A stretch of DNA of 64,000 bases from a bacterium. GTDB taxonomy: Bacteria > UBP18 > UBA7526. Positions 25,714 through 53,271 of the stretch are shown here, in pieces; position 1 is the first letter of the stretch; each line of letters opens with the position of its first letter. Under the pieces are notes generated by a model. The model worked only from the letters and a program-made list of their open reading frames with translations. It did no database searches and was not told the DNA's origin. The translations under genes were made by a program, and so were the position numbers. The stretch lies in the NCBI GenBank assembly GCA_030619985.1, contig JAUXAI010000002.1, positions 167 through 64,166 on the forward strand, written 5' to 3'.

Positions 25714-25785
25714 TGGGACTGGCCAATAGAAGGGTTAAAGATGCAAAATAGAATAAAAAAAATTTCAGATACTAAGGAGGAAAAA

Positions 25786-27069
25786 ATGACTAGAGATTAC
25801 CGGAAAGGAATGCAATTCTTAACCGATGCCCGGGAGCGGTTGGATATGGTGGCTAAGAAGTTAAGACTGGACCCAGGACTGGTGGATAAACTCAAGTTTC
25901 CCAAAAGAGCCCTAATTGTCTCCATACCAGTGAAGATGGATAATGGGCGTTTGAGAGTATTTACTGGCTATCGGGTGCAGCATAATGTAGACCGGGGGCC
26001 GGCCAAAGGAGGAATAAGATACCATCCCGAGGTTACCTTGGAGGAGGTTACTGCCTTAGCCATGCTCATGACCTGGAAGTGCGCTGTAGTGAATATTCCC
26101 TTTGGGGGAGCAAAGGGAGGGGTATACTGTAACCCCAGGGAGATGTCTTTAAAGGAACTGGAGGGATTGACCAGAAGGTTTACTTACGAGATCATGATGA
26201 TGATCGGTCCGGAGAAGGACATCGCGGCTCCCGATGTTTATACTAATCCTCAGGTTATGTCCTGGATGATGGATACCTACAGTATGCATCAGGGATTCTC
26301 TGTTCCTGGGGTGGTTACCGGAAAGCCGGTCCATCTGGGAGGCTCAAAGGGAAGGCTCGATGCTACGGGAAGAGGGGTGATGTTCATCACTCGGGAGGGA
26401 TTGAAACACCTTGGGCTTTCTTTGAAAGGAGCAACCATTGCCATCCAGGGATTCGGGAATGTGGGAAGCGCCTGTGCCAAGCTGTTGCATGAGGTAGGGG
26501 CAAGGATTGTAGCGGTCAGCGATATCAGTGGCGGTCTATTCAATCCTAAAGGGATAGACATCCCTTCTTTGATAAAACATGTAAAAAGAACTAAATATAA
26601 AGTTATTAAGGGCTTCAAGGGTCCGCAGTTCATCAGTGATTTTAAAAGAGCGAATGAGAAACTATTTGGATTAGAGGTTGATGTCCTCATTCCTGCTGCC
26701 CTGGAGAATCAGATCACAGAGGAGAATGCTGGGATCATAAAAGCCAAGATGATTACTGAGGCGGCCAATGGTCCTATCACTCCAAGAGCGGATAAGATAC
26801 TGGCCAAGAAGAAGATATTCATCATTCCCGATATCCTGGCCAATGCCGCTGGGGTGGTGGTCTCCTACTTTGAATGGGTCCAGGATACCCAGGCCCTCTT
26901 CTGGAAGGAGGAAGAGGTCAATCGAAGGTTAGAGGAGATCATGACCGAGGCTTTCTATGATGTCCTGCGCGCTGCGAAGAAGCACAGAGTAGATATGAGG
27001 ATGGCCGCCTATATGCTTGCTGTCTCAAGGGTAGCAGAGGCTACCAGGTTAAGAGGAATCTATCCCTAA
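25786..27069 (+). CDS. gdh: Glutamate dehydrogenase, copy 1
   Basis: YRVQHNVDRGPAKGGIRYHP, GGAKGG and IQGFGNVG are present. Start moved to ATG 25786 after aaggagg. Confidence 0.9.
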   Translation: MTRDYRKGMQFLTDARERLDMVAKKLRLDPGLVDKLKFPKRALIVSIPVKMDNGRLRVFTGYRVQHNVDRGPAKGGIRYHPEVTLEEVTALAMLMTWKCAVVNIPFGGAKGGVYCNPREMSLKELEGLTRRFTYEIMMMIGPEKDIAAPDVYTNPQVMSWMMDTYSMHQGFSVPGVVTGKPVHLGGSKGRLDATGRGVMFITREGLKHLGLSLKGATIAIQGFGNVGSACAKLLHEVGARIVAVSDISGGLFNPKGIDIPSLIKHVKRTKYKVIKGFKGPQFISDFKRANEKLFGLEVDVLIPAALENQITEENAGIIKAKMITEAANGPITPRADKILAKKKIFIIPDILANAAGVVVSYFEWVQDTQALFWKEEEVNRRLEEIMTEAFYDVLRAAKKHRVDMRMAAYMLAVSRVAEATRLRGIYP

Positions 27070-29371: not shown

Positions 29372-29489
29372 AGTAAGCAGGTGAGCAGGTGGGAAAGTGA
29401 GCAGGTGAGTCGCGGGAAAAAATCTGTGTTAATCTGTGTTTTTTAATCTGTGCTAATCTGTGCATAAAGAGATTTACAAAGAGAAAGAG
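29372..29489. repeat. GCAGGTGAG-word array followed by the ATCTGTG-word leader
   Basis: agtaagcaggtgagcaggtgggaaagtgagcaggtgag ... aatctgtgttaatctgtgttttttaatctgtgctaatctgtg. Confidence 0.75.
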
Positions 29490-30308
29490 ATGATTAGGTT
29501 TACTAAGATGTCTGCCAGTGGGAATGATTTCATTGTGATAGATAATCGAGAAAAGCAGATCCTGGATACTGGATCCTGGATGCTGGATTTTGTTAAAAAA
29601 ATATGTAAACGTAAAATAAATATAGGTGCAGATGGCCTGTTGCTTATTGAAGGCTCAGAAAAGGCAGATTTCAAGATGAGGGTCTTCAATCCCGATGGGG
29701 GAGAGGTTGAGATGTGTGGTAATGGGGCGAGGTGCGTCGCCCTTTGGGCGAAATCAAAAATCAAAAATCAAAAATCAAAATGCAAAATTGAGACCGAGGC
29801 TGGGATTCTGGAAGCAGAGGTCGTCTCTGACAATACAGTAAAACTGAAGATGAGCGACCCTGTTGATACCAGATTGAATTTTAAGCTTTTAGTGGGAGAT
29901 AAAGAATATGAGGTCCACACTATCAACACCGGCGTTCCCCATGTTGTTCTCTTTACAGAGGATTTAGAAAAAGCAAAAGTAAAAGAAATAGGAAAAAAAA
30001 TCAGGTATCACCAGGAATTTGCCCCGGAAGGAACGAATGTCAATTTTATAAGAGTAAGGGATGGGAACTCCCTTGACATCAGAACCTACGAAAGGGGAGT
30101 GGAGGATGAGACCTTAGCCTGCGGGACAGGAGCAGCTGCCTCTGCCATCATCTCCCATCTATTGGGCAGAACAAAAGCCCCCACTAAGATGCATACCAAA
30201 AGCGGTTCTATTCTTACAGTATACTTTGATTTTTCCCACTCTAAGATCACCGATCTTTATTTAGAAGGAGATGCGGAAATTATCTATCAAGGAGTTTTAT
30301 ATGGTTAG
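29490..30308 (+). CDS. dapF: Diaminopimelate epimerase
   Basis: FTKMSASGNDFIVIDN, MCGNGARC and ACGTGAAAS are present. Contains the AAATCAA heptamer array. The stop codon TAG overlaps GGTTAGAA, the first base pairs of junction repeat J1. Confidence 0.85.
   Translation: MIRFTKMSASGNDFIVIDNREKQILDTGSWMLDFVKKICKRKINIGADGLLLIEGSEKADFKMRVFNPDGGEVEMCGNGARCVALWAKSKIKNQKSKCKIETEAGILEAEVVSDNTVKLKMSDPVDTRLNFKLLVGDKEYEVHTINTGVPHVVLFTEDLEKAKVKEIGKKIRYHQEFAPEGTNVNFIRVRDGNSLDIRTYERGVEDETLACGTGAAASAIISHLLGRTKAPTKMHTKSGSILTVYFDFSHSKITDLYLEGDAEIIYQGVLYG
29751..29792 (+). repeat. Intragenic heptamer tandem array (AAATCAA x4 plus 2 degenerate) in dapF
   Basis: aaatcaa x4, then aatgcaa and aattgag, encoding KSKIKNQKSKCKIE. 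Confidence 0.9.
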
Positions 30309-30357
30309 AAATAACCGTAATTGTAATTTCATTAGGCAGATAAACCTAATGTTAGAT
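30304..30357 (+). repeat. Junction repeat J1, copy 1 (starts in the dapF stop codon)
   Basis: GTTAGAAATAACCGTAATTGTAATTTCATTAGGCAGATAAACCTAATGTTAGAT. Confidence 0.8.
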
Positions 30358-30385
30358 TTCATCGTGCAACGTTGAGGAAAAGAAG

Positions 30386-30793
30386 ATGAATATTTTCGAC
30401 TTCCCATTTTCTCATCCAGTTATCTACTGGGGTATAGCCTCACTTATGAGCCTGTATCAAGGAATAAGAGGGATATTTATTCAAAGGCATACCGTTGCCG
30501 TTCAAAATGTCGGGCTAGAAGCTGCCGACCCAAAACGCCAACCATGGACATTGAAAGAGCAAATTATAGTTCATAGAATTCATGACTTCATTTTCAACTT
30601 CGTATGCTCAATTGCCGGATACATAGCGCTGTATGCTATTTGCATAATTTTCCTCGACATAAATGACTTATCAAAAATAGAAACAGGCACAGGGATTATT
30701 CTAAGTTTATTGACTCTTGTATCTTTGGCTGGCATATCCGGGGTACTTCCACCACTGTTACTTTTCGGAAAATTATTTGGAAAAGTAGGATAA
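30386..30793 (+). CDS. Cassette ORF 1: small multi-pass membrane protein
   Basis: 135 aa with 3-4 hydrophobic helices, RBS gaggaaaag and no recognised family. Confidence 0.5.
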   Translation: MNIFDFPFSHPVIYWGIASLMSLYQGIRGIFIQRHTVAVQNVGLEAADPKRQPWTLKEQIIVHRIHDFIFNFVCSIAGYIALYAICIIFLDINDLSKIETGTGIILSLLTLVSLAGISGVLPPLLLFGKLFGKVG

Positions 30794-30801
30794 AAAATAA
30801 A

Positions 30802-30857
30802 ATCTAACAGTTGCTGTAGCTGACTCCTTATTTTTGTAAGGATTTTAATGGTTAGAA
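30802..30857 (+). repeat. attC-like site (weak) after cassette ORF 1
   Basis: ATCTAAC at 30802 and GTTAGAA at 30851. Only a short central stem (tcctta/taagga) is present. GTTAGAC at 30898 is an alternative end. Confidence 0.3.
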
Positions 30858-30904
30858 ATAGCCGTAATTGTAATTTTATTAGTACAGATAAACCTATGTT
30901 AGAC
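30836..30904 (+). repeat. Junction repeat J1, copy 2 (full length, with pseudo-dapF 3' end)
   Basis: GTAAGGATTTTAATGGTTAGAAATAGCCGTAATTGTAATTTTATTAGTACAGATAAACCTATGTTAGAC. The first 15 nt resemble the dapF end caaggagttttatatgg. Confidence 0.8.
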
Positions 30905-30942
30905 GACTGTAACGCCTCATAGAGGCACACGGGAGGGCTCGC

Positions 30943-32031
30943 ATGGTACAGGAAGGATTAAGACTATTCTATTCCTATTCCCACGCAGACGAAGGATTCC
31001 GTAGTCAGCTTGAAAAACACTTGGCAATTCTCCGGCGAAAGGGGAGCATCAGGGACTGGAGCGATCGACGGATTGCTCCCGGAGCTGAGTGGAAGGAAGA
31101 AATTGACAATGCTCTAGAAGCCGCGGACATTATTCTACTTCTAGTCAGCGCTGACTTTCTTGCATCAGATTATTGTTACGACGTCGAGCTGGAACGTGCC
31201 TTAGCCCGCCACAAGAAGGGTGATGCATTGGTCGTACCTATAATTATCAGACCAGTGGATCTCGAAGACTCGCCTCTCGCTGGATTGCAAGCATTGCCGA
31301 CTAACGCGAAAGCAGTCACAACATGGGACAACCGTGACGAGGCTTGGCTTAACGTCGCTCGCGGCATCCGTATCGCCTGCAGTAACATTCAGGAACTCAA
31401 ACGGGGTTCCACAACAGAGAAGGCGGACTCAGCAACCCAGGCACTACTCGAGGAAAAGAAGGCGGATTTTGGAATTTTGGATTTCAGCGCAGAACTCGAA
31501 GTCGCGATGCAGGTTGCCATCGACTGTCAAAATGCCATCACTAAACACACGGAAGAGGTCACAGAGGCACTCCAGTCAGGAACGACTAGAGCACTCCAAT
31601 TGAAGTCCTCCACTATGCCTGGTAAGGCAACTAGACTCCGGCAAATCGCTGGTTCAATGGCTGCCGCTCTAGCCGCATACGCAAAGAAAATAGAGAACAC
31701 CGCCAGCGAGCTAGAGGAATCTTGGGACCGAGTAGACGAGTTCTTGCCTAAGCTACTTGAGCTCAGTGATGTCGAGAAGGAGCGAGAACACGTTCCCGAG
31801 TTGCGGACGACCATTCTAGGTGCGATGGACTCAGTTGAGGGTGCCAGAGAGAGCGCAATGGGGGCCGCGGAATCTCTGGCTGAGCTTGCAAAACTAAGTG
31901 CAGCCCTCAAGATAGGCGCGAATAGGGCCAAGAAGGGAATCCAGGCAGTTGTTGAACAGTACTGGCGGATTGAAAACTCAATGCGGCAGACATTGTCCAG
32001 ACTGGATGACTTGTTCGGTATGAGCGACTAG
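30943..32031 (+). CDS. Cassette ORF 2: TIR-domain protein with alpha-helical C-terminal domain
   Basis: The N-terminal ~145 aa (LFYSYSHADE...ILLLVSADFLASDYCYDVELERAL...VPIIIRP) fit the bacterial TIR_2 pattern, including the conserved Glu. The remaining ~215 aa are Ala/Glu/Leu-rich helical. Confidence 0.8.
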   Translation: MVQEGLRLFYSYSHADEGFRSQLEKHLAILRRKGSIRDWSDRRIAPGAEWKEEIDNALEAADIILLLVSADFLASDYCYDVELERALARHKKGDALVVPIIIRPVDLEDSPLAGLQALPTNAKAVTTWDNRDEAWLNVARGIRIACSNIQELKRGSTTEKADSATQALLEEKKADFGILDFSAELEVAMQVAIDCQNAITKHTEEVTEALQSGTTRALQLKSSTMPGKATRLRQIAGSMAAALAAYAKKIENTASELEESWDRVDEFLPKLLELSDVEKEREHVPELRTTILGAMDSVEGARESAMGAAESLAELAKLSAALKIGANRAKKGIQAVVEQYWRIENSMRQTLSRLDDLFGMSD

Positions 32032-32065
32032 GACAGACAACCCGCCGGCGAGCAGAAAGGAACCC

Positions 32066-32150
32066 GTCTAACTTTGCGTTAACCTGACGGTCGCCCCTGT
32101 CACAGTCCTTGCGGGGCAAGGCGGGCGCCAGGGTCGCCCGCAAGTTATGC
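32066..32150 (+). repeat. attC-like site after the TIR cassette
   Basis: GTCTAACTTTGCG ... CGCAAGTTATGC, with an inner stem cctgacggtcgcc / ggcgccagg. Confidence 0.5.
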
Positions 32151-32154
32151 CGAC

Positions 32155-32197
32155 GTTATCTGACATTTTACACCATCAGAATTTGAATAGCTTTATC
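32155..32197 (+). repeat. Junction repeat J2, copy A
   Basis: GTTATCTGACATTTTACACCATCAGAATTTGAATAGCTTTATC. Confidence 0.8.
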
Positions 32198-32256
32198 GCT
32201 GTAATCGTCTTTCAAAATCTCTGTAATCAGATTCCGAGCGTAGTGAGGATATCTTA

Positions 32257-32290
32257 TAATTTTATTAGTCCAGATAAACCTATGTTAGCA
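32257..32290 (+). repeat. Junction repeat J1, copy 3 (3' half)
   Basis: TAATTTTATTAGTCCAGATAAACCTATGTTAGCA. Confidence 0.75.
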
Positions 32291-32307
32291 GCAATAAAAA
32301 AGGAGGA

Positions 32308-32697
32308 ATGACGATGTCACAATGGGACCAATTACAAATGGATACAAAGGTCACGCAAATATTAAATGTTCAGTCACACGAACCAGGTCATCATTTTGGC
32401 AGACCTTTCTTAACTCCGTATCAAATTGCAATCAGCTTTCAACAACGATTTCCGCAAGATTTCCAAACAATTGGAAAACCAGTTGGAGGAAAAGGAACTG
32501 GACAACAAGACTCTCTTGCGCAATACATTGCCCTTGAACTTTCCAAACGCATTAAAGACAGGAAGATTACCAATATAGAGGGAAGATTTTTGCATCGTGC
32601 AAATCTTCATTCACTTGAATATGAAGTGAATAATCAGATAATTGAATCATCATCGATACAGGCTTACGACTTGTCTATGTTTAGACTGATTGATTGA
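32308..32697 (+). CDS. Cassette ORF 3: hypothetical protein
   Basis: 129 aa, strong RBS aaggagg, no motif recognised. Confidence 0.45.
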   Translation: MTMSQWDQLQMDTKVTQILNVQSHEPGHHFGRPFLTPYQIAISFQQRFPQDFQTIGKPVGGKGTGQQDSLAQYIALELSKRIKDRKITNIEGRFLHRANLHSLEYEVNNQIIESSSIQAYDLSMFRLID

Positions 32698-32706
32698 AAA
32701 TTGAGC

Positions 32707-32778
32707 TGCTAACAAAACGCTGCACCTGACCGCTATTCCGCTGAGCTCCATAGTGGCAGGTGAGATTGGTCATTAGGT
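32707..32778 (+). repeat. Degenerate attC-like site between ORF 3 and ORF 4
   Basis: TGCTAAC ... cacctg / caggtg stem ... ATTAGGT. The last box has A instead of G. Confidence 0.35.
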
Positions 32779-32787
32779 GTAATAAAG

Positions 32788-33354
32788 ATGATTGAAATAC
32801 TTACAGCTATACTTGTCATAGTTACTGGATTTTATGCTTGGGTAACTTTTAAAATTTTAAAGGCAAATGAGTCAGTTCTTAAAGAAATGCGTGGCCAACA
32901 GGAAGCGCTATTTAGGCCATACATCTCTATTTCTCCTGTTGTATACACTGATAATCCAATATTTTTTCTTAAGGTTCACAACACGGGGCGATCATCAGCT
33001 GACAATTTGAGTTTAACAATTGACAAAGATTTTTACCAGTTTGGCGAAAAGAAAGATGACAGAAACTTACGTAATTTCAGTGCATTCTCTAGCAAAATAG
33101 ATAGTTTTGTTCCTAATGCTCAGATGCTTTTTTACTTAGCCCAAGGATTTGTGATTTTCGGTAAAGATGCAAAAAAAGATATAACTCCAAGTATATTTAC
33201 TGTTACTGCGCAGTATGAATTTTCAGGGAAGTCAGTACAAGAGCAAACCGTTATTGATCTTAGACCATACTTCAAGAGTGCTATACCACAAGACCCTATT
33301 GTGTCGAAGTTAAAAGATATAAAGAAAAGTATTGATAAAAAGAAAATCACCTAA
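32788..33354 (+). CDS. Cassette ORF 4: N-terminally anchored hypothetical protein
   Basis: 188 aa with one N-terminal TM helix. Very AT-rich by eye. The TAA stop lies inside the ACCTAAC box. Confidence 0.5.
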   Translation: MIEILTAILVIVTGFYAWVTFKILKANESVLKEMRGQQEALFRPYISISPVVYTDNPIFFLKVHNTGRSSADNLSLTIDKDFYQFGEKKDDRNLRNFSAFSSKIDSFVPNAQMLFYLAQGFVIFGKDAKKDITPSIFTVTAQYEFSGKSVQEQTVIDLRPYFKSAIPQDPIVSKLKDIKKSIDKKKIT

Positions 33355-33434
33355 CAATGGTATCAATCTGGCAGCTTGGCTTGCAGCCAAGTGCCCTCGT
33401 TTCTGTCGGCTGCAGCTTATACCTGTCGTTAGGC
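33349..33434 (+). repeat. attC-like site after ORF 4
   Basis: ACCTAACaatggtatcaatctggcagc ... gctgcagcttatacctgtcGTTAGGC. The arms pair with bulges. Confidence 0.65.
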
Positions 33435-33462
33435 ACACATTAAAATAGATTGCGAGGTTCGT

Positions 33463-33921
33463 ATGAAAATAATTCCTCACAACTTCAGGCATGCCAGAGA
33501 CATTGTCGCATCGAAAGGATTACATGACGAAGTGGATACCATCATAAAGGAGCTGCATCGTGGATGGTTGAAAAAAAAGACTGGCCTTCTTGCTTTTCAA
33601 AAGGAAATCCTCAACAAGTACCGGTGGACACCTGAATATTCCATCGGTATTGAAAATCGAAGATATGCCTATGATGGATTCAAGGAAGGTCTTGCATTTG
33701 AGATTGAATGGAATGTTTCAGAAAAAATACTTGAAGTCATACTAAAAATGCAATTTGGTTTTGTGACAGGCCAGGTCGAAGCTGGCTTGATTGTGAACGT
33801 ACGAAGCGATGCGAAGAATTCGCCCATACCACCAGAAGAAGCCGGTGGTGCAAAAGAGATCGAAGAAATGAAATGCATAATTACTGTGCCACTTTATTTA
33901 GTTGTATTTGGAAAGGATTAA
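33463..33921 (+). CDS. Cassette ORF 5: hypothetical protein, possible PD-(D/E)xK-type nuclease fold
   Basis: 152 aa. YDGFKEGLAFEIEWN gives a D-x8-E-x-E pattern reminiscent of BglII/BamHI-like active sites. This is weak, motif-level evidence only. Confidence 0.4.
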   Translation: MKIIPHNFRHARDIVASKGLHDEVDTIIKELHRGWLKKKTGLLAFQKEILNKYRWTPEYSIGIENRRYAYDGFKEGLAFEIEWNVSEKILEVILKMQFGFVTGQVEAGLIVNVRSDAKNSPIPPEEAGGAKEIEEMKCIITVPLYLVVFGKD

Positions 33922-33944
33922 TACGCATCAAGTGAAAGTGTGGT

Positions 33945-34030
33945 GCCTAACAGTCGCGTGCAGCAGATGACTATGGCTGTCATGCCGGGGCACGCCAGCC
34001 TTGTCACTGCTGAAGCGAAGATCGTTAAAG
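33945..34030 (+). repeat. attC-like site after ORF 5
   Basis: GCCTAACagtcgcgtgcagcagatgac ... gtcactgctgaagcgaagatcGTTAAAG. Confidence 0.6.
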
Positions 34031-34098
34031 AATGTATATGAAATAACAAAAATGCCCAGTAGCAGGACTTCTTTTATCCGCAAACCGTTATGGTCTTC
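34031..34098 (+). other. ORF-less spacer between an attC-like site and junction repeat J1 copy 4 (possible empty cassette)
   Basis: No ORF of useful length. Bounded by GTTAAAG (34024) and the pseudo-dapF-end/J1 copy at 34099. Confidence 0.3.
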
Positions 34099-34167
34099 GT
34101 AAGGATTTTAATAGTTAGAAATAGCCGTAGTTGTAATTTTATTAGTATAGATAAACCTATGTTAGGC
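34099..34167 (+). repeat. Junction repeat J1, copy 4 (full length, with pseudo-dapF 3' end)
   Basis: GTAAGGATTTTAATAGTTAGAAATAGCCGTAGTTGTAATTTTATTAGTATAGATAAACCTATGTTAGGC. Confidence 0.8.
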
Positions 34168-34187
34168 GATAAAAGGAGTAGATAACA

Positions 34188-34631
34188 ATGGTCACATATG
34201 GAATAAATTGGGTTGCTATAGTTGGCATCATTGGAACTTTGGCTGGAGTCTGTGTGGGCGCATTTGTCACTTGGAAGATTCAAGAAAGGCAGTTTAAACA
34301 TTCTGATGCCACACGGTTTCAAAAAGATAGACTTGATACTTATGCACAATATACAGGTGCCGCCAACCTTGCAGTATCTTATTGGATAGTCAACCAACAA
34401 AATCCAGATGCCACTGAAAAGTTTATCGACTTATTTGAGAGGGTACGGTTGGTGGCAACAGATGAAGTTATGAAACACGCCAATTTATTGCATGAGAAAT
34501 TTGGTGAGATTCAAAGACTAGGAAGTGAGACAAAAATACCTGAGAAGAATTTATTAGAATTCAATCTAATTGTTGGAAATTTCGTAAATGCGGCAAGAAA
34601 TGAGTTGCGAATCAGGGAAAACAACTCCTAA
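34188..34631 (+). CDS. Cassette ORF 6: N-terminally anchored hypothetical protein
   Basis: 147 aa, RBS aaaaggag, one N-terminal TM helix then a helical domain. The TAA stop lies inside the TCCTAAC box. Confidence 0.5.
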   Translation: MVTYGINWVAIVGIIGTLAGVCVGAFVTWKIQERQFKHSDATRFQKDRLDTYAQYTGAANLAVSYWIVNQQNPDATEKFIDLFERVRLVATDEVMKHANLLHEKFGEIQRLGSETKIPEKNLLEFNLIVGNFVNAARNELRIRENNS

Positions 34632-34692
34632 CCAGTCACTGCACCCGACCAAAAAACTGGCGCTTTTTGGCGGGTGAGCTTGGATGTTATCT
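34626..34692 (+). repeat. attC-like site after ORF 6
   Basis: TCCTAACcagtcactgcacccgacc ... ggcgggtgagcttggatGTTATCT. Confidence 0.6.
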
Positions 34693-34747
34693 GCAGATCG
34701 TATATTCTGCCGGACTTTGGGTATTCTCTCTGCCCGGACTTATTAGT

Positions 34748-34990
34748 ATGCACAAGAGCCTTGATAATTTCGCAATTCCAAAAGTCAATTTTTTGGTTTA
34801 TGGGGGATTTTCATTTTTAGTAGTAATCCTTGCAATTCTTACTACAATAAATTTTTTCGTTTCTCCGTATAAATCGATATGGAAATTAATAGGTGAGAAT
34901 GTTTGGACACCTATCCTAATATTTCTTGGTATCCTTGTAGTTGGTAACATCGGAAGAGTAGCTGTCATGTCTAAATTTATGAAAAAATAA
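34748..34990 (+). CDS. Cassette ORF 7: small membrane protein (start uncertain)
   Basis: The ORF-track start (TTG 34667) lies inside the preceding attC-like site. ATG 34748 gives an ~80-aa two-TM protein. No clear RBS. Confidence 0.35.
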   Translation: MHKSLDNFAIPKVNFLVYGGFSFLVVILAILTTINFFVSPYKSIWKLIGENVWTPILIFLGILVVGNIGRVAVMSKFMKK

Positions 34991-34994
34991 TTTC

Positions 34995-35049
34995 TCATAA
35001 CAAGGCGCTACACCTGACTGTTACCCACCGCTAATTTCGAATGTTAAGT
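34995..35049 (+). repeat. Short, weak attC-like site after ORF 7
   Basis: TCATAAC ... GTTAAGT 55 nt apart. Internal pairing is poor by eye. Confidence 0.3.
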
Positions 35050-35072
35050 GCTCAGAAAAGAAAGGATTAAGG

Positions 35073-35630
35073 ATGTCATTGCTGAAATTGCTTTTCTCAC
35101 GGAAGTTCAGAACCCTGAGAAAATTACTGTTTGAAGTCCGAATGTTTTGGCCACCATCCCAAGCTGATGATTTTCTCAGCAAACTCCGATTCTTCTCATT
35201 CCTTTTCTACAGTCACGGATTTCTGGGTGTGAATCAAATTCCTGCATTTCCCAATGCATACAAAAATATCACCCCTGATGTGTTTAGAAAAACGTACATC
35301 GTTCTGCCGTTCTACTTTGCCCTACGGTCGGGACTACAAGACTCTAGCTTGACTTCGGTTGAACAGCTAGTAGTCACGCTCTCTCAAAAGTACCCGACTC
35401 TAGACGCTGACATTCTGCAACGACTTTCGTCGGAATGGCAAGACGCGAATCGTGAGGAACTGGATAGACTTCTGTATGAGCAATTCAAAGCTCAAGGGGT
35501 TTTTCGCAAGGTCTTTACTGCAACGGATGCCGAAGTTGAAAAGTGGTTTGGGAATTTCCTCAACCAAACATTTGACCACGCCATGCAGTTTTCAGTTTCA
35601 AGAAGTTCAGCGTCTGCGAATAACACCTAA
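35073..35630 (+). CDS. Cassette ORF 8: hypothetical protein
   Basis: 185 aa, RBS aaaggattaagg. The TAA stop lies inside the ACCTAAC box. Confidence 0.45.
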   Translation: MSLLKLLFSRKFRTLRKLLFEVRMFWPPSQADDFLSKLRFFSFLFYSHGFLGVNQIPAFPNAYKNITPDVFRKTYIVLPFYFALRSGLQDSSLTSVEQLVVTLSQKYPTLDADILQRLSSEWQDANREELDRLLYEQFKAQGVFRKVFTATDAEVEKWFGNFLNQTFDHAMQFSVSRSSASANNT

Positions 35631-35698
35631 CTAGAGCATTCAGGCGACTTGGTGTTCCGCGCTGCCCCACACCAAGCGCCTTATTCCGAGCGTTATCT
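35625..35698 (+). repeat. attC-like site after ORF 8
   Basis: ACCTAACtagagcattcaggcgacttggtgt ... acaccaagcgccttattccgagcGTTATCT. Confidence 0.65.
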
Positions 35699-35730
35699 AC
35701 TATTTTACAACATCAGAATTTAGGATTTTG
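35692..35730 (+). repeat. Junction repeat J2, copy B (diverged)
   Basis: GTTATCTACTATTTTACAACATCAGAATTTAGGATTTTG. Confidence 0.6.
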
Positions 35731-35740
35731 CCAAAATATT

Positions 35741-35781
35741 GTAAGGTCTAGCTTGTTAGTACAGATAAACCTATGTTAGGA
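35741..35781 (+). repeat. Junction repeat J1, copy 5 (internally deleted)
   Basis: GTAAGGtctagcttGTTAGTACAGATAAACCTATGTTAGGA. The downstream ATTTCAT matches copy 1. Confidence 0.7.
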
Positions 35782-35819
35782 TTTCATTGATAGAATTAAT
35801 TCAATCCAAGGAGGTTGAG

Positions 35820-36206
35820 ATGGTTACGGTAGCAGATATTATGACTCGGGAAGTTGTTACCATCCAAGCAAAAGCACCTTTACGAGAGGCTTTATTCAAG
35901 CTGGTCCAAAATAAGATCAGCGGTCTGCCGGTGGTTAACCAAAAGAATGAGCTGGTGGGAATTATTACCGAGAAGGATATGTTAAATTTCATTCTCAGTG
36001 GCAGTCTGCCTCAGACTGTGGTAAAAGAGGCCATGACCAAAGAGGTGATATGCTTCCCTCCTGACACACCCTATGAAAAGCTTTGCCTCAGCTTGATTGA
36101 ACACAACTTCCGGCGCATTCCGATTGTGGAGGGGAAAAAAGTGGTGGGAATCGTAGCCAGGAGAGATTTGCTCCGCGAAATTTCTCGATTTTATGGTCAG
36201 AAGTGA
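35820..36206 (+). CDS. Cassette ORF 9: CBS-domain pair protein
   Basis: VADIMTREVVT...ISGLPVV....LVGIITEKD and ...FRRIPIVEGKKVVGIVARRDL give two CBS motifs. Start moved to ATG 35820 after aaggagg. Confidence 0.7.
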   Translation: MVTVADIMTREVVTIQAKAPLREALFKLVQNKISGLPVVNQKNELVGIITEKDMLNFILSGSLPQTVVKEAMTKEVICFPPDTPYEKLCLSLIEHNFRRIPIVEGKKVVGIVARRDLLREISRFYGQK

Positions 36207-36226
36207 AGGATTTGGTTATAGACAAA

Positions 36227-36293
36227 TCCTAACCCATCGCTCCACTCGACCGTGACTGCTCCGCTGCCCCGGCGAGTGAGATTATTGTTATCT
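36227..36293 (+). repeat. attC-like site after the CBS cassette
   Basis: TCCTAACccatcgctccactcgacc ... ggcgagtgagattattGTTATCT. Confidence 0.6.
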
Positions 36294-36329
36294 GCCATTT
36301 TGCAGCATCAGAATTTGAATAGCTTTATC
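36287..36329 (+). repeat. Junction repeat J2, copy C
   Basis: GTTATCTGCCATTTTGCAGCATCAGAATTTGAATAGCTTTATC, followed by a host-type ATCTGTG leader copy up to 36385. Confidence 0.8.
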
Positions 36330-36430
36330 AGTGCTAATCCGTGTCATTTAATCTGTGCTAATCTGTGAAGATTGCCGAACCCCGCACCAGAACAAGTTCG
36401 GTGCGGGACAGGCTCCGTGAGGCTTATCTT

Positions 36431-36457
36431 ATTAGTACAGATAAACCTATGTTGGGC
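36431..36457 (+). repeat. Junction repeat J1, copy 6 (3' part)
   Basis: ATTAGTACAGATAAACCTATGTTGGGC. Confidence 0.7.
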
Positions 36458-36497
36458 AATCAACCGACGCACAATAGCACAACGGAAAGGAGGAGGT

Positions 36498-36908
36498 ATG
36501 AAGAGACCTACAGTGATTATTGCCGTATTGATGATGCTGACTGTTGGAGTATCATTCCTTGGCTGTTCAAAGCGGGAACAAGGAGCCGTGTTGCTTCAGG
36601 AGGAGCTTGGCACGAGCAAACAAGAAGCCCTAGCCACAAGCGCAAAGGAAGTTGGTGAGTCCGCGCGTACGACAAAGACCAGCGCGGAATTTGTTCTCAA
36701 AAACAAAACTTCATTCTGGTTGACGCTATCTATTGATGGGGAGAAGAGCTGTTCAGCGCCTCCAGGCGATCAATGCGTCGATCTTGTTACCCCTGGATGG
36801 CACAACCTGAAGGCCGAGGAAACATTAAATCCTGAAAATTATGTCACCAGGACTGCTGATATTCCACCTGAGGGCGCAATATGGACAATTACTGAAAAGA
36901 AAAAGTAA
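36498..36908 (+). CDS. Cassette ORF 10: lipoprotein
   Basis: ATG 36498 follows aaaggaggagg. MKRPTVIIAVLMMLTVGVSFLGC has a lipobox. The upstream part of ORF 36372.. is junction-repeat sequence. Confidence 0.6.
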   Translation: MKRPTVIIAVLMMLTVGVSFLGCSKREQGAVLLQEELGTSKQEALATSAKEVGESARTTKTSAEFVLKNKTSFWLTLSIDGEKSCSAPPGDQCVDLVTPGWHNLKAEETLNPENYVTRTADIPPEGAIWTITEKKK

Positions 36909-36968
36909 AAATTTGTGACAAAATAAGACGAAGGAATTCAATAAGAACTCGTTTAGAAAGGAGGTAAT

Positions 36969-37208
36969 GTGATGTCCACCGTTTCGATTATCTTCGGGAT
37001 CTTGGCAGTATTAGGTTACTTTGTGTTCGTTTTGAGTTGGGGCCAACCGTCCTGGGTTTTCTGGGGGTCGATCGCGGCCAGCGCGATTGCCATCGTCACA
37101 GGCTTCTTGACCAGGACCGCTCGCCGCGGAAAGATCGGGCTCATTCTAGGAGCTTTTGGCGTGGTCGTTGGGATCCTCATGATTCTGTATTTCACTTTTA
37201 CTGTCTAA
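36969..37208 (+). CDS. Cassette ORF 11: small two-TM membrane protein
   Basis: 79 aa, RBS aaaggagg. No attC-like site separates it from ORF 10, so they may form a two-gene cassette. The TAA stop lies inside the GTCTAAC box. Confidence 0.5.
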   Translation: MMSTVSIIFGILAVLGYFVFVLSWGQPSWVFWGSIAASAIAIVTGFLTRTARRGKIGLILGAFGVVVGILMILYFTFTV

Positions 37209-37270
37209 CAAGTCGTTGCAACGGACCCTAAACCACGTCGGGTTTAGGGCTCATGCTGGCGAGGTTATAA
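37203..37270 (+). repeat. attC-like site after ORFs 10-11
   Basis: GTCTAACaagtcg ... central perfect hairpin ccctaaacc/ggtttaggg ... ggcgagGTTATAA. Confidence 0.5.
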
Positions 37271-37283
37271 TCTTTCGGCATTG

Positions 37284-37307
37284 TCATGTACCCAACGTGG
37301 TACATGA
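37284..37307 (+). terminator. Perfect 9-bp hairpin at the right edge of the island
   Basis: tcatgtacc-caacgt-ggtacatga. No U-tract follows, so a terminator function is uncertain. Confidence 0.3.
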
Positions 37308-37326
37308 GAGCCACTGAACTCATTTC

Positions 37327-37369
37327 GTTATCTGCCATTTTACACCATCAAAATTTGAATAGCTTTATC
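37327..37369 (+). repeat. Junction repeat J2, copy D (right island boundary, upstream of the dapL-like gene)
   Basis: GTTATCTGCCATTTTACACCATCAAAATTTGAATAGCTTTATC. Confidence 0.8.
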
Positions 37370-37434
37370 TGTGCCCATCTGTGCTTTAGAATCTGTGCTC
37401 ATCTGTGCAGATGGCCGAGCCCCGCGAGGACATA

Positions 37435-38598
37435 ATGATTAAAAGAGCCCGAAGGATAGAGAAACTACCCGTTTACCTCTTTGCCCAGATCGATAGGGCG
37501 AAGAGAGAAGCCATTGCCAAAGGTGTGGATATCATTGACTTCGGAGTGGGGGATCCCGATCTCCCTACCCCTAATCATATCATTGAGGCATTATACAGAG
37601 CCGCCCAGGACCCTAAGAATCATAGGTACCCTTCTTATGAAGGAATGCTCAAATTCCGGGAAGCGGTTGCTTCCTGGTATAAGAAGAGATTTAATGTAGA
37701 ACTGGATCCAGAGAGAGAAGTCCTTACCCTGATCGGAGCCAAAGAGGGGATAGGTCATCTTCCTTTAGCCTTTATAAATGAGGGAGATATCGCCCTCATT
37801 CCCGATCCGGGTTATCCCGTCTATCGGGCGGGAGTGACCTTTGCTGCTGGAATTTCCCATCCCATGCCTTTATTGAGGGAAAATGATTTCCTACCAGATT
37901 TGGGGACCATTGATAGAAAGATCGCTAAGAAAGCAAAATTAATCTTTCTGAACTATCCCAATAATCCCATCTCTAGCGTAGCGAATAAAGATTTCTTCAG
38001 GAAAGTGGTTACATTCGCTAAGGAGAATGATGTTATCGTCTGTCATGATGCCACCTATTCCGAGCTGGGCTACGAGGGCTATAAGCCACCCAGTTTCTTG
38101 GAGATAGCAGGAGCGAAGGAGGTGGGAATAGAATTCCACTCCTTGTCTAAGACCTATAATATGACCGGCTGGAGAATAGGCTTTGCCGTTGGCAATAGTG
38201 ATATCTTGGCTGGGTTGGGAAGCATAAAGACCAATATCGATTCCGGGGTCTTCCAGGCCATTCAGTATGCTGGCATTGAGGCCTTGACTGGTCCCCAGGA
38301 GTGCATCGAAAAGAATGTTGACACTTATAGGGAGAGAAGGGATATCTTGGTAAATGGATTGAATAGACTGGGTTGGGATGTTCCTCTACCAAAGGTAGCC
38401 TTCTACGTCTGGATTCCCGTGCCCAAAGGATATACTTCAGCCAAAATCTGCGAAACTCTTTTGAATAAATGCGGAATCGTCATGACCCCGGGGAACGGTT
38501 TTGGTAAATCTGGCGAAGGTTATATTCGGGCGGCTCTCACAGTCGATAAGTCAAGAATAGAAGAAGCGATAAAAAGAATAGAGAATTTAAAACTTTGA
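37435..38598 (+). CDS. Class I aminotransferase, probable LL-diaminopimelate aminotransferase
   Basis: IEKLPVYLFAQIDR, DFGVGDPDLPTP, NYPNNP and SLSKTYNMTGWRIGF are present. The dapF neighbourhood supports the call. Start moved to ATG 37435. Confidence 0.6.
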   Translation: MIKRARRIEKLPVYLFAQIDRAKREAIAKGVDIIDFGVGDPDLPTPNHIIEALYRAAQDPKNHRYPSYEGMLKFREAVASWYKKRFNVELDPEREVLTLIGAKEGIGHLPLAFINEGDIALIPDPGYPVYRAGVTFAAGISHPMPLLRENDFLPDLGTIDRKIAKKAKLIFLNYPNNPISSVANKDFFRKVVTFAKENDVIVCHDATYSELGYEGYKPPSFLEIAGAKEVGIEFHSLSKTYNMTGWRIGFAVGNSDILAGLGSIKTNIDSGVFQAIQYAGIEALTGPQECIEKNVDTYRERRDILVNGLNRLGWDVPLPKVAFYVWIPVPKGYTSAKICETLLNKCGIVMTPGNGFGKSGEGYIRAALTVDKSRIEEAIKRIENLKL

Positions 38599-38614: not shown

Positions 38615-39865
38615 ATGGAAGAGAGATTGAATTCTTTTCAGATTGGACTGAAATTACTGGATAGGGCAGCGGAAAAACTTAAACTCGATCCCGGCTTGCA
38701 TAAGAAGCTCAGGTATCCCAAGAGACAGCTCATTGTCTCCATTCCAGTGAAGATGGACGATGGTTCCTTAGAGGTATTCACTGGTTATCGGGTACAGCAT
38801 AATGTGGATCGTGGCCCGGCAAAAGGGGGGATAAGATATCATCCCACGGTTACCCTGGATGAGATAAAGGCCCTGGCCATGGCCATGACCTGGAAGTGCG
38901 CTGTAGTGGGCATCCCTTATGGAGGAGCAAAAGGAGGGGTGAAGTGCAATCCAAAGGAGATGTCTCTGGGAGAGATAGAGAGACTGACCAGGAGATATAC
39001 CTATGAGATCTCGGTCATCATCGGACCAGAGAAGGACATTCCGGCACCCGATGTCTATACCGATTCCCAGACCATGTCCTGGATGATGGATACCTATTCC
39101 ATGGCCCAGGGTTTTACTGTTCCTGGGGTAGTGACTGGGAAGCCACTGGCGCTGGGTGGTACCAGGGGTAGAAAGGATGCTACCTCCTGGGGAGTGGTAT
39201 TTGTTATCCAACAGGCCATTCAACATCTTGGTCTAAACCTTAAAGGGGCAACCATAGCAGTCCAGGGATATGGTGCAGCCGGTGCTGGAATAGTCCGGAT
39301 CTTAGGAGAGAAGGGTGCCCGAATAATCGCTGTTTCTGATTCCCGGGGAGGGATCTATAATGGGAAAGGCCTCGATCCTACTAAACTCGCGGAATATAAG
39401 AGTAGAACCGGCTCGGTGAAGGAATATGAAAGAGGAGAAGCAGTCTCCAATGAAGAGCTTCTGGAACTGAAATGTGATGTTTTGGTCCCCGCCGCCTTAG
39501 AAAACCAGATCACAGAAGAGAATGTGGAAAGAATAAAGGCTAAGATTATTGCCGAGGCGGCCAATGGGCCGACTACTCCTGGAGCGGATGAGATACTGGC
39601 TAAGAATAAGATATTCGTCATTCCGGATATCTTAGCCAATGCTGGTGGGGTAACGGTCAGTTATTTTGAATGGATGCAGGACCTTCAGTCCCACTTCTGG
39701 ACAGAGGAAGAGGTGAATGCTCAATTAGAGAAGGTGATGGTGAAGGGTTTTCAGGATGTCTTGAAGGTTTCTCGAGAAGAGCGCGTAGATATGAGGACCG
39801 CTGCCTATATGTTAGCCGTTTCTCGAGTGGCAGAGGCTACGAGGTTAAGGGGAATCTATCCCTGA
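38615..39865 (+). CDS. gdh: Glutamate dehydrogenase, copy 2
   Basis: Same motifs as copy 1, with long identical blocks (YRVQHNVDRGPAKGGIRYHP, AAYMLAVSRVAEATRLRGIYP). Confidence 0.9.
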   Translation: MEERLNSFQIGLKLLDRAAEKLKLDPGLHKKLRYPKRQLIVSIPVKMDDGSLEVFTGYRVQHNVDRGPAKGGIRYHPTVTLDEIKALAMAMTWKCAVVGIPYGGAKGGVKCNPKEMSLGEIERLTRRYTYEISVIIGPEKDIPAPDVYTDSQTMSWMMDTYSMAQGFTVPGVVTGKPLALGGTRGRKDATSWGVVFVIQQAIQHLGLNLKGATIAVQGYGAAGAGIVRILGEKGARIIAVSDSRGGIYNGKGLDPTKLAEYKSRTGSVKEYERGEAVSNEELLELKCDVLVPAALENQITEENVERIKAKIIAEAANGPTTPGADEILAKNKIFVIPDILANAGGVTVSYFEWMQDLQSHFWTEEEVNAQLEKVMVKGFQDVLKVSREERVDMRTAAYMLAVSRVAEATRLRGIYP

Positions 39866-39970
39866 ACGCAGATGACCGCAGATCCAAACGCAGATGATCG
39901 CAGATATCTGTGCCAATCTGTATCTTTTAATCTGTGTTAATCTGTGTGCCGACTAAAAGGAGGCAAGAAG
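39866..39970. repeat. Word-repeat inverted repeat, CGCAGAT/ATCTGTG
   Basis: acgcagatgaccgcagatccaaacgcagatgatcgcagat / atctgtgccaatctgtatcttttaatctgtgttaatctgtg. Confidence 0.8.
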
Positions 39971-43630: not shown

Positions 43631-43726
43631 AAGTAACCAGAAGTTAACAAGTTACAAGTTAACAAGGATATAAGTTAACACGAAACTTACTTATCAACTT
43701 GTCAACTTATTAACTTGTTAACTAAT
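43631..43726. repeat. Word-repeat inverted repeat, AAGTTAAC/GTTAACTT family
   Basis: gaagttaacaagttacaagttaacaagg..aagttaac / cttatcaacttgtcaacttattaacttgttaac. Confidence 0.8.
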
Positions 43727-51692: not shown

Positions 51693-53069
51693 ATGGATCT
51701 TTTAATTAAGAATGGAAAGATAATAACAGCCTCTGAGGCCTATCGGGCCGATGTCGGTATCAGGGGAGGAAAGATCGTAGCAATTGGCAAGAACCTAAGG
51801 CCAAAGAAAGGAACTCAGGTCATCGATGCCCGGGGGAAGTTAGTCATGCCGGGAACCATTGACCCCCATGTCCACTGTGAGCTCCCCTTTTGTGGGACGG
51901 TCTCTGCCGACTTCTTTCTTGAGACGGCCTCTGCTGCGGCAGGAGGAATCACCACCATTATTGATTTTGCCATTCAGGCAAAAGGAACGAGCATGAAAGA
52001 GACCGTTAGGGCCAGGAAGAAATTAGCAGATCCCAAGGTGGCCATTGATTATGGGCTTCATGTAGGGATTACCGATTGGAAGAATAAAAGGACTCAGAAA
52101 GAATTGCCCGAAGTCATCAAGAGCGGCATCCCAACTTTTAAGATGTTCATGATCTACCGGGGGGAGGGATGGATGAGCGACGATGCTGACCTCTATGAGG
52201 CCTTAAGTTTAGTCAAGAGATACGGAGGAAGGATTGGAGTCCACGCAGAAAATGTTTATGTCACCGAAACCTTAACGGAAAAATATTTAAAAGATAAGAA
52301 ATTCGCTACCTATAACCATGCCCTCACCAGGCCGAACTTCACTGAAGGAGAAGCCATTCAGAGAGCCATCACCTTAGCCGAAGCAGCCCAGGGTTCTCTC
52401 TACATCGTCCATATGTCTACCAAAGAGGGGTTAGAAGCGGTAAGGGAGGGAAAAAAGAGAGGAGTAGACGTCTATGCCGAGACCTGCCCCCAGTACCTCT
52501 TCCTGACCGATGATCTATTCAAGAAGAAGAACGGGCACTGGTATGCCACCTGCCCTCCGATTAGAAAGAGAGCCGATTGTCTTGCTCTCTGGGAGGGGCT
52601 GGAGGAAGGGACGATACTCAACATGGGAACTGATACTTGCACCTTTAATACCAAGCAGAAGGCCCTCTGGAAGGGGGTCTTTGCCAAGATTCCCTTTGGC
52701 ATGCCGGGATTGGAAACCTTCCTGCCCATGATGTATACCGCTTGTGTGAAGCGAGGATGGAGCATTAATGACTTAGTAGCGATCACTTCCACCAATAGCG
52801 CCAAGATATTCGGTCTCTATCCTAAGAAGGGAACCATCGCCATCGGTTCTGATGCCGATCTGGTGATCCTCGATCCTAAGAAGCGGGTGACTATTTTACC
52901 CAAGAGGCTGCAGTCCACCTGTGACTGGAATCCTTATACCGGACGGAAGTTAGTGGGCTATCCAGTGATGACTATCTCCCGGGGAAGGATTATCGCTAAG
53001 GATGGCAAGTTTGTGGGAGAAAAAGGTTGGGGCCGATTTGTTCCCAGGAAGGCCTACGGCCGCATATAA
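51693..53069 (+). CDS. Dihydropyrimidinase / D-hydantoinase
   Basis: LLIKNGKI, GTIDPHVH and a KMFM-type carboxylated-Lys region are present, with cyclic amidohydrolase length. Confidence 0.8.
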   Translation: MDLLIKNGKIITASEAYRADVGIRGGKIVAIGKNLRPKKGTQVIDARGKLVMPGTIDPHVHCELPFCGTVSADFFLETASAAAGGITTIIDFAIQAKGTSMKETVRARKKLADPKVAIDYGLHVGITDWKNKRTQKELPEVIKSGIPTFKMFMIYRGEGWMSDDADLYEALSLVKRYGGRIGVHAENVYVTETLTEKYLKDKKFATYNHALTRPNFTEGEAIQRAITLAEAAQGSLYIVHMSTKEGLEAVREGKKRGVDVYAETCPQYLFLTDDLFKKKNGHWYATCPPIRKRADCLALWEGLEEGTILNMGTDTCTFNTKQKALWKGVFAKIPFGMPGLETFLPMMYTACVKRGWSINDLVAITSTNSAKIFGLYPKKGTIAIGSDADLVILDPKKRVTILPKRLQSTCDWNPYTGRKLVGYPVMTISRGRIIAKDGKFVGEKGWGRFVPRKAYGRI

Positions 53070-53250: not shown

Positions 53251-53271
53251 TTGAAAAAAGAGGAGAGTGAA

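Follow-up and report, generated by a model that had tools for sequence, protein, structure and literature searches.

An integron-type gene-cassette array without a nearby integrase, probably docked at a lineage-specific site between dapF and dapL

The stretch of bacterial DNA analysed here (the window; 64,000 nucleotides of contig JAUXAI010000002.1, assembly GCA_030619985.1, GTDB lineage UBP18) makes up nearly the whole of a 64,211-bp contig, and within it the genes for diaminopimelate epimerase (dapF) and LL-diaminopimelate aminotransferase (dapL) are separated by an interval (30304–37434) with eleven open reading frames (ORFs). We propose, with a probability of about 0.75, that this interval is an integron-type cassette array without a nearby integrase, known as a CALIN (cluster of attC sites lacking an integron integrase; Cury et al. 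2016, PMC4889954), and that it occupies a conserved docking site specific to this lineage. Both flanking genes score above their family cut-offs, dapF (29508–30308, + strand, called product 266 aa) with 255.8 bits for TIGR00652 (cut-off 114.65) and dapL (37435–38598, + strand) with 626.3 bits for TIGR03540 (cut-off 593.25). A DapL-like gene follows dapF at 2–261 bp in 20 of the 96 unrelated genomes, from other phyla as well, that have enough downstream sequence. This agrees with an earlier note on the same DNA, according to which the flanks are lysine-pathway genes that are normally neighbours, and the 7.1-kb gap is thus an insertion into a common gene pair. The eleven ORFs (78–362 aa), all co-oriented on the + strand, span 30386–37208, just as that note had listed them. 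Its impression that composition varies among the cassettes is confirmed by measurement, with GC contents from 0.31 to 0.52 for the cassettes and about 0.42–0.49 for the flanks. Rfam gives no match, neither at its gathering thresholds nor at E values up to 1, and no tRNA genes were detected.

Attachment sites within the array

A typical cassette of the array consists of a single ORF followed by an attC-type site with the order R'', 5 nt, L'' with two unpaired bases, loop, L', 5–6 nt and R' (GTTA). The earlier note had pointed to seven RYYYAAC-type boxes (32066, 33349, 33945, 34626, 35625, 36227 and 37203) with GTTRRRY-type partners (32144, 33428, 34024, 34686, 35692, 36287 and 37264), and each box is found at the coordinate given. 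All seven sites carry TAAC ... GTTA in inverted orientation at their ends, and in four cassettes the TAA stop codon does lie within the first box (stops at 33352, 34629, 35628 and 37206). The observation that most ORFs are followed by an imperfect palindrome stands for these seven sites, whereas three cassette boundaries lack a foldable attC. Folding of the bottom strands, which the note had proposed as a check, places all seven sites ahead of their shuffled versions (z −1.9 to −3.5), and the canonical sites have two unpaired bases at the canonical positions. Two such bases are the cue by which integron integrases choose the strand.

As a yardstick we used class 1 integrons from plasmids, the IntI1 query being 100% identical to plasmid copies. 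Twelve reference attCs (aadA1, aadA2, aadA5, aadB, aac(6')-29a, blaVIM-2, aacA4, arr-3, dfrA1, dfrA5, dfrA12 and dfrA14) are described by a grammar of NNNTAAC, 5 nt, 3 nt, an extra base, 6 nt, an extra base, the loop, 6 nt, 3 nt, 5 or 6 nt and GTTA; in none of the twelve is more than one of the nine L-box pairs mismatched, and two held-out attCs are also recovered. On the + strand of the array the grammar matches five times (32077–32150, 33349–33434, 34626–34692, 35625–35698 and 36227–36293) with at most two mismatches in 9 bp, while the rest of the window has a single match (3401–3558) and the − strand none. Unrelated control loci yielded 18 matches in 1.81 Mb over both strands, none of them perfect, a rate that corresponds to ~0.035 matches expected per 7.1 kb of one strand; shuffled versions of the window gave a mean of 0.78 matches over both strands. 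The positions of the unpaired bases coincide with those in blaVIM-2 and aadA1, as is evident from a comparison of ACT[G]CACCCG[A]CC at the 34626 site with GTT[G]CAGCCG[A]CC in blaVIM-2.

A covariance model, a home-made proxy built from the arms of the same twelve class 1 attCs (arms-only sequences, with an N pad for the 5-nt vs. 6-nt spacer), places its five top matches of the window in the array, all on the + strand (25.6, 20.5, 16.9, 13.2 and 13.2 bits), and a sixth array site ranks seventh. Under this proxy model the two best sites have E values of 1.9e-4 and 0.005 and four more array sites score 11–17 bits, compared with 14–27 bits for genuine long-loop attCs and 13.3 bits at most in 166 kb of control DNA. 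The covariance model and the grammar (five array sites vs. ~0.035 expected), both derived from class 1 cassettes and both demanding two unpaired bases at the canonical positions, together support the identification of the palindromes as integron attC sites that the earlier note had made. Five canonical and three or four degenerate sites are thus clustered within 7.1 kb, all on the + strand; their loops all differ from one another, and the R''–L'' arm alone is common to them.

Early hairpin scanners were dropped, the first being too strict (four matches) and the second noisy (six matches in the array, where shuffled sequences gave 1.5 on average and never more than 5), as was a relaxed scanner with many matches within coding regions. 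An intergenic palindromic run of (A)AGTTAAC / GTTAACTT words at 43631–43723 gives spurious matches both in the hairpin scanners and in the covariance model.

Variable content and conserved half-sites between dapF and dapL

Close relatives were reached via DapF homologues and the contigs encoding them. Eight of them, with DapF proteins 64–86% identical, each have a different cassette set between dapF and dapL, ranging from one small membrane ORF (locus L001) or two ORFs (L002) through DUF5674 and others (L163), ten ORFs including Mrr (L164), GmrSD, a CAP12-type TIR protein and others (L166), and a nucleotidyltransferase pair, a RES-like gene and then the ORF10-11 cassette of the window (L169), to seven ORFs in L184, whose DapF is only 64% identical. 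This bears out the earlier suggestion of a hot spot at dapF, and the locus is fixed across the lineage with variable cassettes, among them Mrr, GmrSD, TIR and toxin-antitoxin genes. The attC grammar also matches the relatives' arrays, and the covariance model scores seven + strand sites in the relatives' loci at 19–32 bits, six of them in dapF-dapL arrays and one in L168, an array introduced below.

Individual cassettes are shared between arrays at an identity above that of their surroundings. The ORF10-11 cassette (36426–37220) is 96.7% identical to positions 3036–3830 of L169, where the housekeeping flanks are 86–89% identical, and it is the cassette farthest from dapF, which matches the prediction of integron polarity. 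The CBS cassette (35775–36235) is 95.7% identical to L168 3657–4117, with homology that begins exactly at G|TTAG, and L168 shares nothing else with the window in the 14 kb compared. L168 (1–14088; GCA_043804695.1, 'PVC group bacterium') is a separate long co-oriented array with genes for DUF6036, aldolase, CBS and AhpC-type proteins, a HipA toxin-antitoxin pair and further proteins. Its attC-like sites measure ~140 nt (e.g. 873–1036), several other repeat families are present, and no recombinase lies in the 14 kb compared. A further cassette, for a 30-aa lysine-rich peptide (MGDKGKKDRDKQSRQTQAKKDAKKKKQERR) and preceded by an attC with R' GTTAAGT, is present in L163 (4224–4316) and at two positions in L164 (4398–4490 and 6838–6930).

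Three repeat modules, D1, D2 and D3, are restricted to the dapF-dapL locus within the window and had been overlooked in the earlier note. D2 ends in the core CAGATAAACCTATG and stands before ORFs six times in the array, D3 is a 74-nt extension of D2, and D1 (GTTATCTGCCATTTTACACCATCAGAATTTGAATAGCTTTATC) lies 3' of attCs three times and once more upstream of dapL. The left boundary of the array is a near-invariant half-site, CAGATAAAC-CTAT-G|TT, and the right boundary, upstream of dapL, reads G|TTATCTG-CCATTTTACA. When both ends are joined, CAGATAAAC CTAT GTTATCTG forms an imperfect, attI-like inverted repeat; the candidate docking site, written out as CAGATAAACCTATGTTATCTG, is a 20-nt inverted repeat. 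The CAGATAAACCTATG core is near-invariant in about 20 copies from seven genomes, with variation starting immediately after G|TT, and since this is far better conservation than that of the housekeeping flanks (79–90% nucleotide identity to the window), it points to present constraint.

The position of the half-sites is similarly stable. In all relatives dapF has the same orientation as the array and stops 0–80 bp before the first half-site. D2 follows dapF in the seven closer relatives, and D1 precedes dapL in only four of these; the most distant relative, L184, has both in diverged form only. The full palindrome is intact at L164 4599, and L184 has a diverged, uninterrupted version directly after dapF. 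Among the matches listed for more distant DapF relatives (59% identity or less), none has the D1 or D2 motifs. In L164 the dapF-adjoining half-site (1130–1180) is split by an insert of ~55 nt with TAAACC on both sides, which could be a very small mobile element.

Inside the array of the window, CAGATAAACCTATG|TT occurs in six copies, behind either D3 or copies of host-type upstream sequence, which together with D1 form an internal D1–D2 unit (U) whose left end is TTATCTG, followed by D1, host-type upstream sequence and CAGATAAACCTATG. All modules lie on the + strand. The first D3/D2 module (30286–30359, assigned to the D3 family by alignment) overlaps the final codons of dapF and has the half-site variant CAGATAAACCTAATG|TTAGAT at 30337–30351. 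D3 recurs at 30826–30898 (CCTTATTTTTGTAAGGATTTTAATGGTTAGAAATAGCCGTAATTGTAATTTTATTAGTA, D2 core at 30885–30898) and at 34089–34161 (D2 core TAGATAAACCTATG at 34148–34161). U modules are present at 32155–32284 (D1 as GTTATCTGACATTTTACACCATCAGAATTTGAATAGCTTTATC, word repeats, GTGAGGATATCT and a D2 core at 32271–32284), at 35692–35775 in a short form (D2 core at 35762–35775) and at 36287–36451 in full, with D1, host-type ATCTGTG words, a copy of the dapL-upstream sequence and a D2 core at 36438–36451. All three U modules are directly 3' of a complete attC, with R' given as GTTATCT (GTTATGC at 32144). The final D1 and the region upstream of dapL occupy 37327–37434, where GTTATCTG, the right half of the inverted repeat, is followed by word repeats and a ribosome-binding site.

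Two other origins of D3 were considered. A duplication of the 3' end of dapF by Campbell-type integration, with U as a duplicated 5' end of dapL, was rejected for D3: the dapF genes of relatives end differently, so that the dapF tail in the window is itself D3-derived. D3 as a complete alternative attC was also rejected, as it has no fold and its covariance-model score does not exceed 12.5 bits.

The word repeats that usually precede start codons in this host are also found in the U modules. The earlier note had described such spacers as missing from the array, which is incorrect, because the dapL-proximal part of D1 consists of the ATCTGTG repeats that this genome places before many genes; ATCTGTG-type words are present at 36337–36367 and 37367–37407, and ATCTGTG occurs 43 times in the window. 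More generally, the intergenic regions of the host consist of word repeats (29422–29463, 39860–39950, 53065–53255, 54610–54795 and many others), with (A)CGCAGAT-type words after stop codons and AATCTGTGCTAATCTGTG-type words just before start codons. A conserved block at 54710–54757 (AATGCTTAATTATTTATGCTCTCTAGGATGCTAACGAAGTGCATCCTG) is seen again 5' of dapL in L163 and L166.

As a mechanism, we suggest that a tyrosine recombinase of the IntI type, whose gene would lie at another genomic position or arrive with a mobile element, would fold the bottom strand of the attC of a circular cassette and recombine it with the double-stranded docking site, the crossover falling at G|TT, as it does in attI x attC reactions. 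The CAGATAAAC CTAT GTTATCTG inverted repeat would then correspond in layout to the simple site of attI1. The six internal copies of the left half-site probably serve as additional points of entry, perhaps with a promoter function as well, and the last copy of D1 would keep dapL expressed at any array length. Part of the array is probably frozen, since several attCs are decayed or truncated.

Cassettes along the array

All cassettes and their sites lie on the + strand. Closest to dapF, ORF1 (30386–30793) encodes a small membrane protein of 135 aa that has two hydrophobic segments and matches no family, and is followed at 30802–30825 by a half attC, R''–L'' only (ATCTAAC AGTT GCTGTAGCTGACT), that is fused to D3 and has no fold; the same junction is found in L164, L166 and L169. 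ORF2 (30943–32031, 362 aa, GC 0.52) combines an N-terminal ThsB-type TIR domain with a helical C-terminal half (Pfam TIR_2 1e-15; PADLOC ThsB1 1.8e-55). Its attC at 32066–32150 has an outer R'' (GTCTAAC, 32066), a second R'' used by the grammar (CGTTAAC, 32077) and R' GTTATGC; it folds with −22.9 kcal/mol (z −3.0) and fits the grammar over 32077–32150 with two mismatches. ORF3 (32308–32697, 129 aa) has no family match, and the attC behind it (32707–32778) has a mutated R' (ATTAGGT) with the L''/L' pair CACCTG/CAGGTG intact, scoring 20.5 bits (E 0.005). ORF4 (32788–33354, 188 aa, GC 0.34) has an N-terminal membrane anchor, and its TAA stop lies within the R'' of the next attC, ACCTAAC ... GTTAGGC (33349–33434; fold z −2.7, one grammar mismatch, 16.9 bits).

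ORF5 (33463–33921, 152 aa) is a compact BglII/BamHI-fold endonuclease-like protein. Seven of the 13 members of its family match Pfam Endonuc-BglII, the best with 3.9e-20, and a structure model from the 13-sequence alignment reaches a pLDDT of 90.7 (the single-sequence AlphaFold model, with a pLDDT of 38, was unusable); Foldseek places it next to BglII at a TM score of 0.71–0.73, then OkrAI, BamHI and BstYI. The attC-like hairpin that follows, GCCTAAC ... GTTAAAG (33945–34030), has a strong stem with non-canonical spacing (−20.3 kcal/mol, z −3.5), and neither the grammar nor the covariance model picks it up. ORF6 (34188–34631, 147 aa), with an N-terminal membrane anchor, precedes the best canonical attC of the array, TCCTAAC CAGTC ACT[G]CACCCG[A]CC ... 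CGGGTG AGC TTGGAT GTTATCT (34626–34692; one grammar mismatch, 25.6 bits, E 1.9e-4, fold z −2.9).

ORF7 (34748–34990, 80 aa) has two membrane segments and ends at a half attC, TCATAAC AAGGC GCTACACCTGACT (34995–35019; repeat family D4), without an L' partner or a fold. ORF8 (35073–35630, 185 aa) has no family match, and four other contig sets encode members of its 90% identity cluster; the attC behind it, ACCTAAC ... GTTATCT (35625–35698), has two grammar mismatches, 13.2 bits and a fold z of −2.5. For both ORF3 and ORF8, Pfam, PADLOC and further family searches gave no match. ORF9 (35820–36206, 128 aa) is a CBS-pair protein (Pfam CBS 2e-34), followed by the attC TCCTAAC CCATC GCT[C]CACTCG[A]CC ... 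CGAGTG AGA TTATT GTTATCT (36227–36293; one grammar mismatch, 13.2 bits, z −2.2). The last cassette (36498–37208) has two genes, ORF10 (136 aa) and ORF11 (78 aa, three membrane segments), with no attC site between them. The N-terminal hydrophobic segment of ORF10, ending in LGC, is read by eye as a putative lipoprotein signal, which the lipobox pattern did not flag. The decayed attC at its end, GTCTAAC AAGTC GTTGCAACGGACC ... GTTATAA (37203–37270), has lost its L' pairing (fold z −1.9, 11.3 bits) and departs from the L169 copy after L''. The cassette content announced in the earlier note is therefore recognisable in a ThsB-like TIR protein, a possible nuclease of BglII/BamHI fold, a CBS-pair protein, membrane proteins and, by eye, one lipoprotein.

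In the other array ORFs, scanned with PADLOC except for ORF9, there was no match to ThsA, SIR2, SLOG or Macro, and no methyltransferase domain was found among the array ORFs, nor one adjoining ORF5. Outside the array, the hisF-trpE-dapF-array-dapL block lies between two glutamate dehydrogenase paralogues (25741–27069 and 38615–39865) with ~72% nucleotide identity.

Alternative origins and comparison with known systems

Several observations weigh against an integrase-built array at a dedicated site. As the earlier note had said, the window shows no integrase. A tblastn search with the IntI1 and XerD proteins, run at E values up to 10, has no match anywhere in the 64 kb, and in the parts of the relatives' contigs compared it has chance-level matches only (E 0.2 or worse); in unrelated loci these queries brought up Xer genes without difficulty. 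Only two covariance-model matches are individually significant with the home-made proxy, and at three or four cassette boundaries the attC is halved or mutated. The dapF-adjoining half-site (30337–30351) has one extra A, CCTAATG vs. CCTATG in about 19 other copies, which would alter the spacing of the putative core site, and an empty site (junction CAGATAAACCTATGTTATCTGCCATTTTACA) was not found in any relative. The homology of shared cassettes runs out at R'' or L'' or a little beyond, where the canonical model predicts R'; this is seen for window 35775–36235 and L168 3657–4117, for L164 1162–2118 and L184 12589–13554, and for window 36426–37220 and L169 3036–3830. In the relatives, U modules are not 3' of a complete attC and their left ends differ. 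Finally, complete integrons drive their promoterless cassettes from a Pc promoter, and here a promoter scan showed no enrichment, with 16 sigma-70 sites vs. 16.0 expected for a consensus that may not be the lineage's own, and a terminator scan showed no enrichment either. The loss of homology at R''/L'', the fixed D3 fusions and the extra A suggest that site-specific recombination is accompanied by simple decay or by micro-homology recombination at the L'' motif common to the sites.

A more far-reaching version of the proposal, which we regard as doubtful, is that the cassette entry site has been uncoupled from the integrase gene and built into the essential dapF-dapL operon, the entry site itself being a mobile, ORF-less pseudo-cassette (U). 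A U circle would carry an intact attI-like palindrome and could insert behind any attC, so that U insertion would give the array more entry points and perhaps more promoters; this would explain why arrays resemble several dapF-dapL loci joined end to end. The three attC–U junctions of the window are what insertion of a circle with an intact palindrome would give. Because the left ends of U differ in the relatives, insertion of U circles is only partly supported.

The most serious rival, still unlikely in our view, holds that the array is a fossil: an ancestral chromosomal integron would have lost its integrase, the attCs would be relics, and the present variation would arise by homologous or micro-homology recombination after DNA uptake, with the dapF/dapL flanks, D2, D3, the U modules and the lineage-wide L'' motif CTGCACCTGACC as anchors and no site-specific recombination. 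The half, mutated or decayed attCs at 30802, 32707, 34995 and 37203 would be expected in such a relic, as would five different R''–L'' halves joined to D3 at one fixed point, shared homology that stops at R'' or L'' and not at R', the lack of any canonical attC in the distant relative L184 and that of an integrase within 64 kb. It fits poorly with five attCs that are still canonical, unpaired bases included, with the left breakpoint of the CBS cassette exactly at G|TT in an array otherwise dissimilar over the 14 kb compared, and with a half-site core conserved far beyond the housekeeping flanks.

It is very improbable that another recombinase, Xer-like or of a different tyrosine type, acts on CAGATAA-ACCTATG-TTATCTG as a dif-like site in XerCD-type integration, the likeness to attC being convergent. 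Sites of the dif type have inverted arms around a centre, and the arms of the reconstructed site do end in ATAA and TTAT around a 7-nt centre; the failure to see an IntI would also be accounted for. However, no Xer gene is seen either, the cassettes lack a double-stranded dif-like site, and the attCs match a grammar and a covariance model made from IntI1 substrates, down to the two unpaired bases. Least probable of all is an assembly artefact in which the cassette sets of co-existing strains were strung together via the D2, D3 and U repeats and the real array is shorter: the contig is metagenome-assembled and the locus hypervariable and rich in repeats, but by reading of the alignments the repeat copies share exact stretches of only about 14–18 nt, shorter than the usual final assembly k-mers, and the internal D1–D2 and D3 junctions recur in independent assemblies from other samples (L002, L163, L164, L166 and L169), with the same order in the independent assemblies L169/L170 and L166/L167, which makes a chimera unlikely.

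The integron-type array that we favour can be set beside several known systems. The CALIN label of the earlier note fits, since no integrase or Xer-type gene is detectable in 64 kb: at least two attCs share a strand, intI is absent over 4 kb and likewise over 10 kb, and with about 10 boundaries the array is small; its cassettes are unlike those of mobile integrons. The array differs from CALINs in its single conserved position throughout the lineage, inside a biosynthetic gene pair, and in being bounded by a conserved attI-like site that is also repeated internally, neither of which belongs to the CALIN description (PMC4889954). In a complete integron intI lies beside attI and is divergent from the array, whereas here dapF, co-oriented, adjoins the first half-site; the large arrays of sedentary chromosomal integrons have more than about 19 highly similar attC sites, compared with about 10 boundaries and loops that all differ here.

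Sedentary chromosomal integrons, such as the Vibrio arrays and the Xanthomonas integrons, also sit at a fixed locus (10.1101/2025.06.18.660453). They resemble the present locus in a conserved position across related species, variable cassettes, a lineage-specific attC consensus and older cassettes at the far end. The Xanthomonas arrays adjoin ilvD. Unlike such integrons, in which intI and attI stand side by side at the start, here dapF abuts the site with no intI or remnant, and the arrays are short (1–11 genes). Defence genes among the cassettes are another point in common (10.1101/2024.07.02.601686).

Integron integrases also insert cassettes into the genome at attG sites, a proposed origin of small CALINs (10.1101/2022.09.11.507474). 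The route outlined above is similar in that a cassette would enter a double-stranded chromosomal site outside an integron, with crossover at G|WT and an integrase acting, as we propose, in trans; attG sites are scattered and consist of a loose GWT with weak flanks, whereas the site here is a 20-nt inverted repeat, conserved in the lineage, reused many times and duplicated. The candidate site has the layout of attI1, which in the plasmids reads GCCCTAAAAC AAA G|TT followed by variable cassette sequence: the left part of attI1 ends in TAAAAC-AAA-G|TT and D2 in TAAAC-CTAT-G|TT, and a GTTA-type direct repeat lies ~51 nt upstream in attI1 and ~47 nt upstream in D3. There is no similarity beyond these short boxes, and unlike attI1 the site here is not beside an integrase gene.

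Two of the cassette proteins recall defence systems. ORF2 matches ThsB1 of Thoeris (1.8e-55) but has no ThsA partner in the array, and ORF5 shares the fold of BglII/BamHI-type restriction endonucleases but has no methyltransferase there; with neither ThsB plus ThsA nor endonuclease plus methyltransferase present, no complete known system, be it Thoeris or Type II restriction-modification, is found here. The locus may nonetheless be a small reservoir of candidate defence genes from an uncultivated lineage, with the ThsB-like TIR protein and the BglII-fold nuclease here and Mrr, GmrSD, the CAP12-type TIR protein and toxin-antitoxin pairs in the relatives.

CALINs are common, and their origin and continued activity are unsettled; loss of the integrase and insertion at secondary or attG sites have been offered as origins (PMC4889954; 10.1101/2022.09.11.507474). 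The dapF-dapL locus provides a natural series in which a conserved double-stranded site without an adjoining integrase holds different cassettes in at least nine related genomes, with intact and decayed attCs and copies of the entry half-site inside the arrays. It makes testable whether a dedicated chromosomal site can be used by an integrase supplied in trans, whether an attI-like site is mobilised, and how cassettes are expressed when an array splits an operon. We found no report in the literature of an integron array tied to dapF, nor of one in the nearest named relatives of the lineage, and an attI-like site that stands apart from the integrase and is repeated within arrays is not mentioned in the parts of the integron literature compared, in which no search was aimed at it. 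Integron cassettes, CALINs, attG insertion and defence genes in integrons have all been described (PMC4889954; 10.1101/2022.09.11.507474; 10.1101/2024.07.02.601686). The array itself is thus of a known type, and the dedicated, duplicated docking site is the new element.

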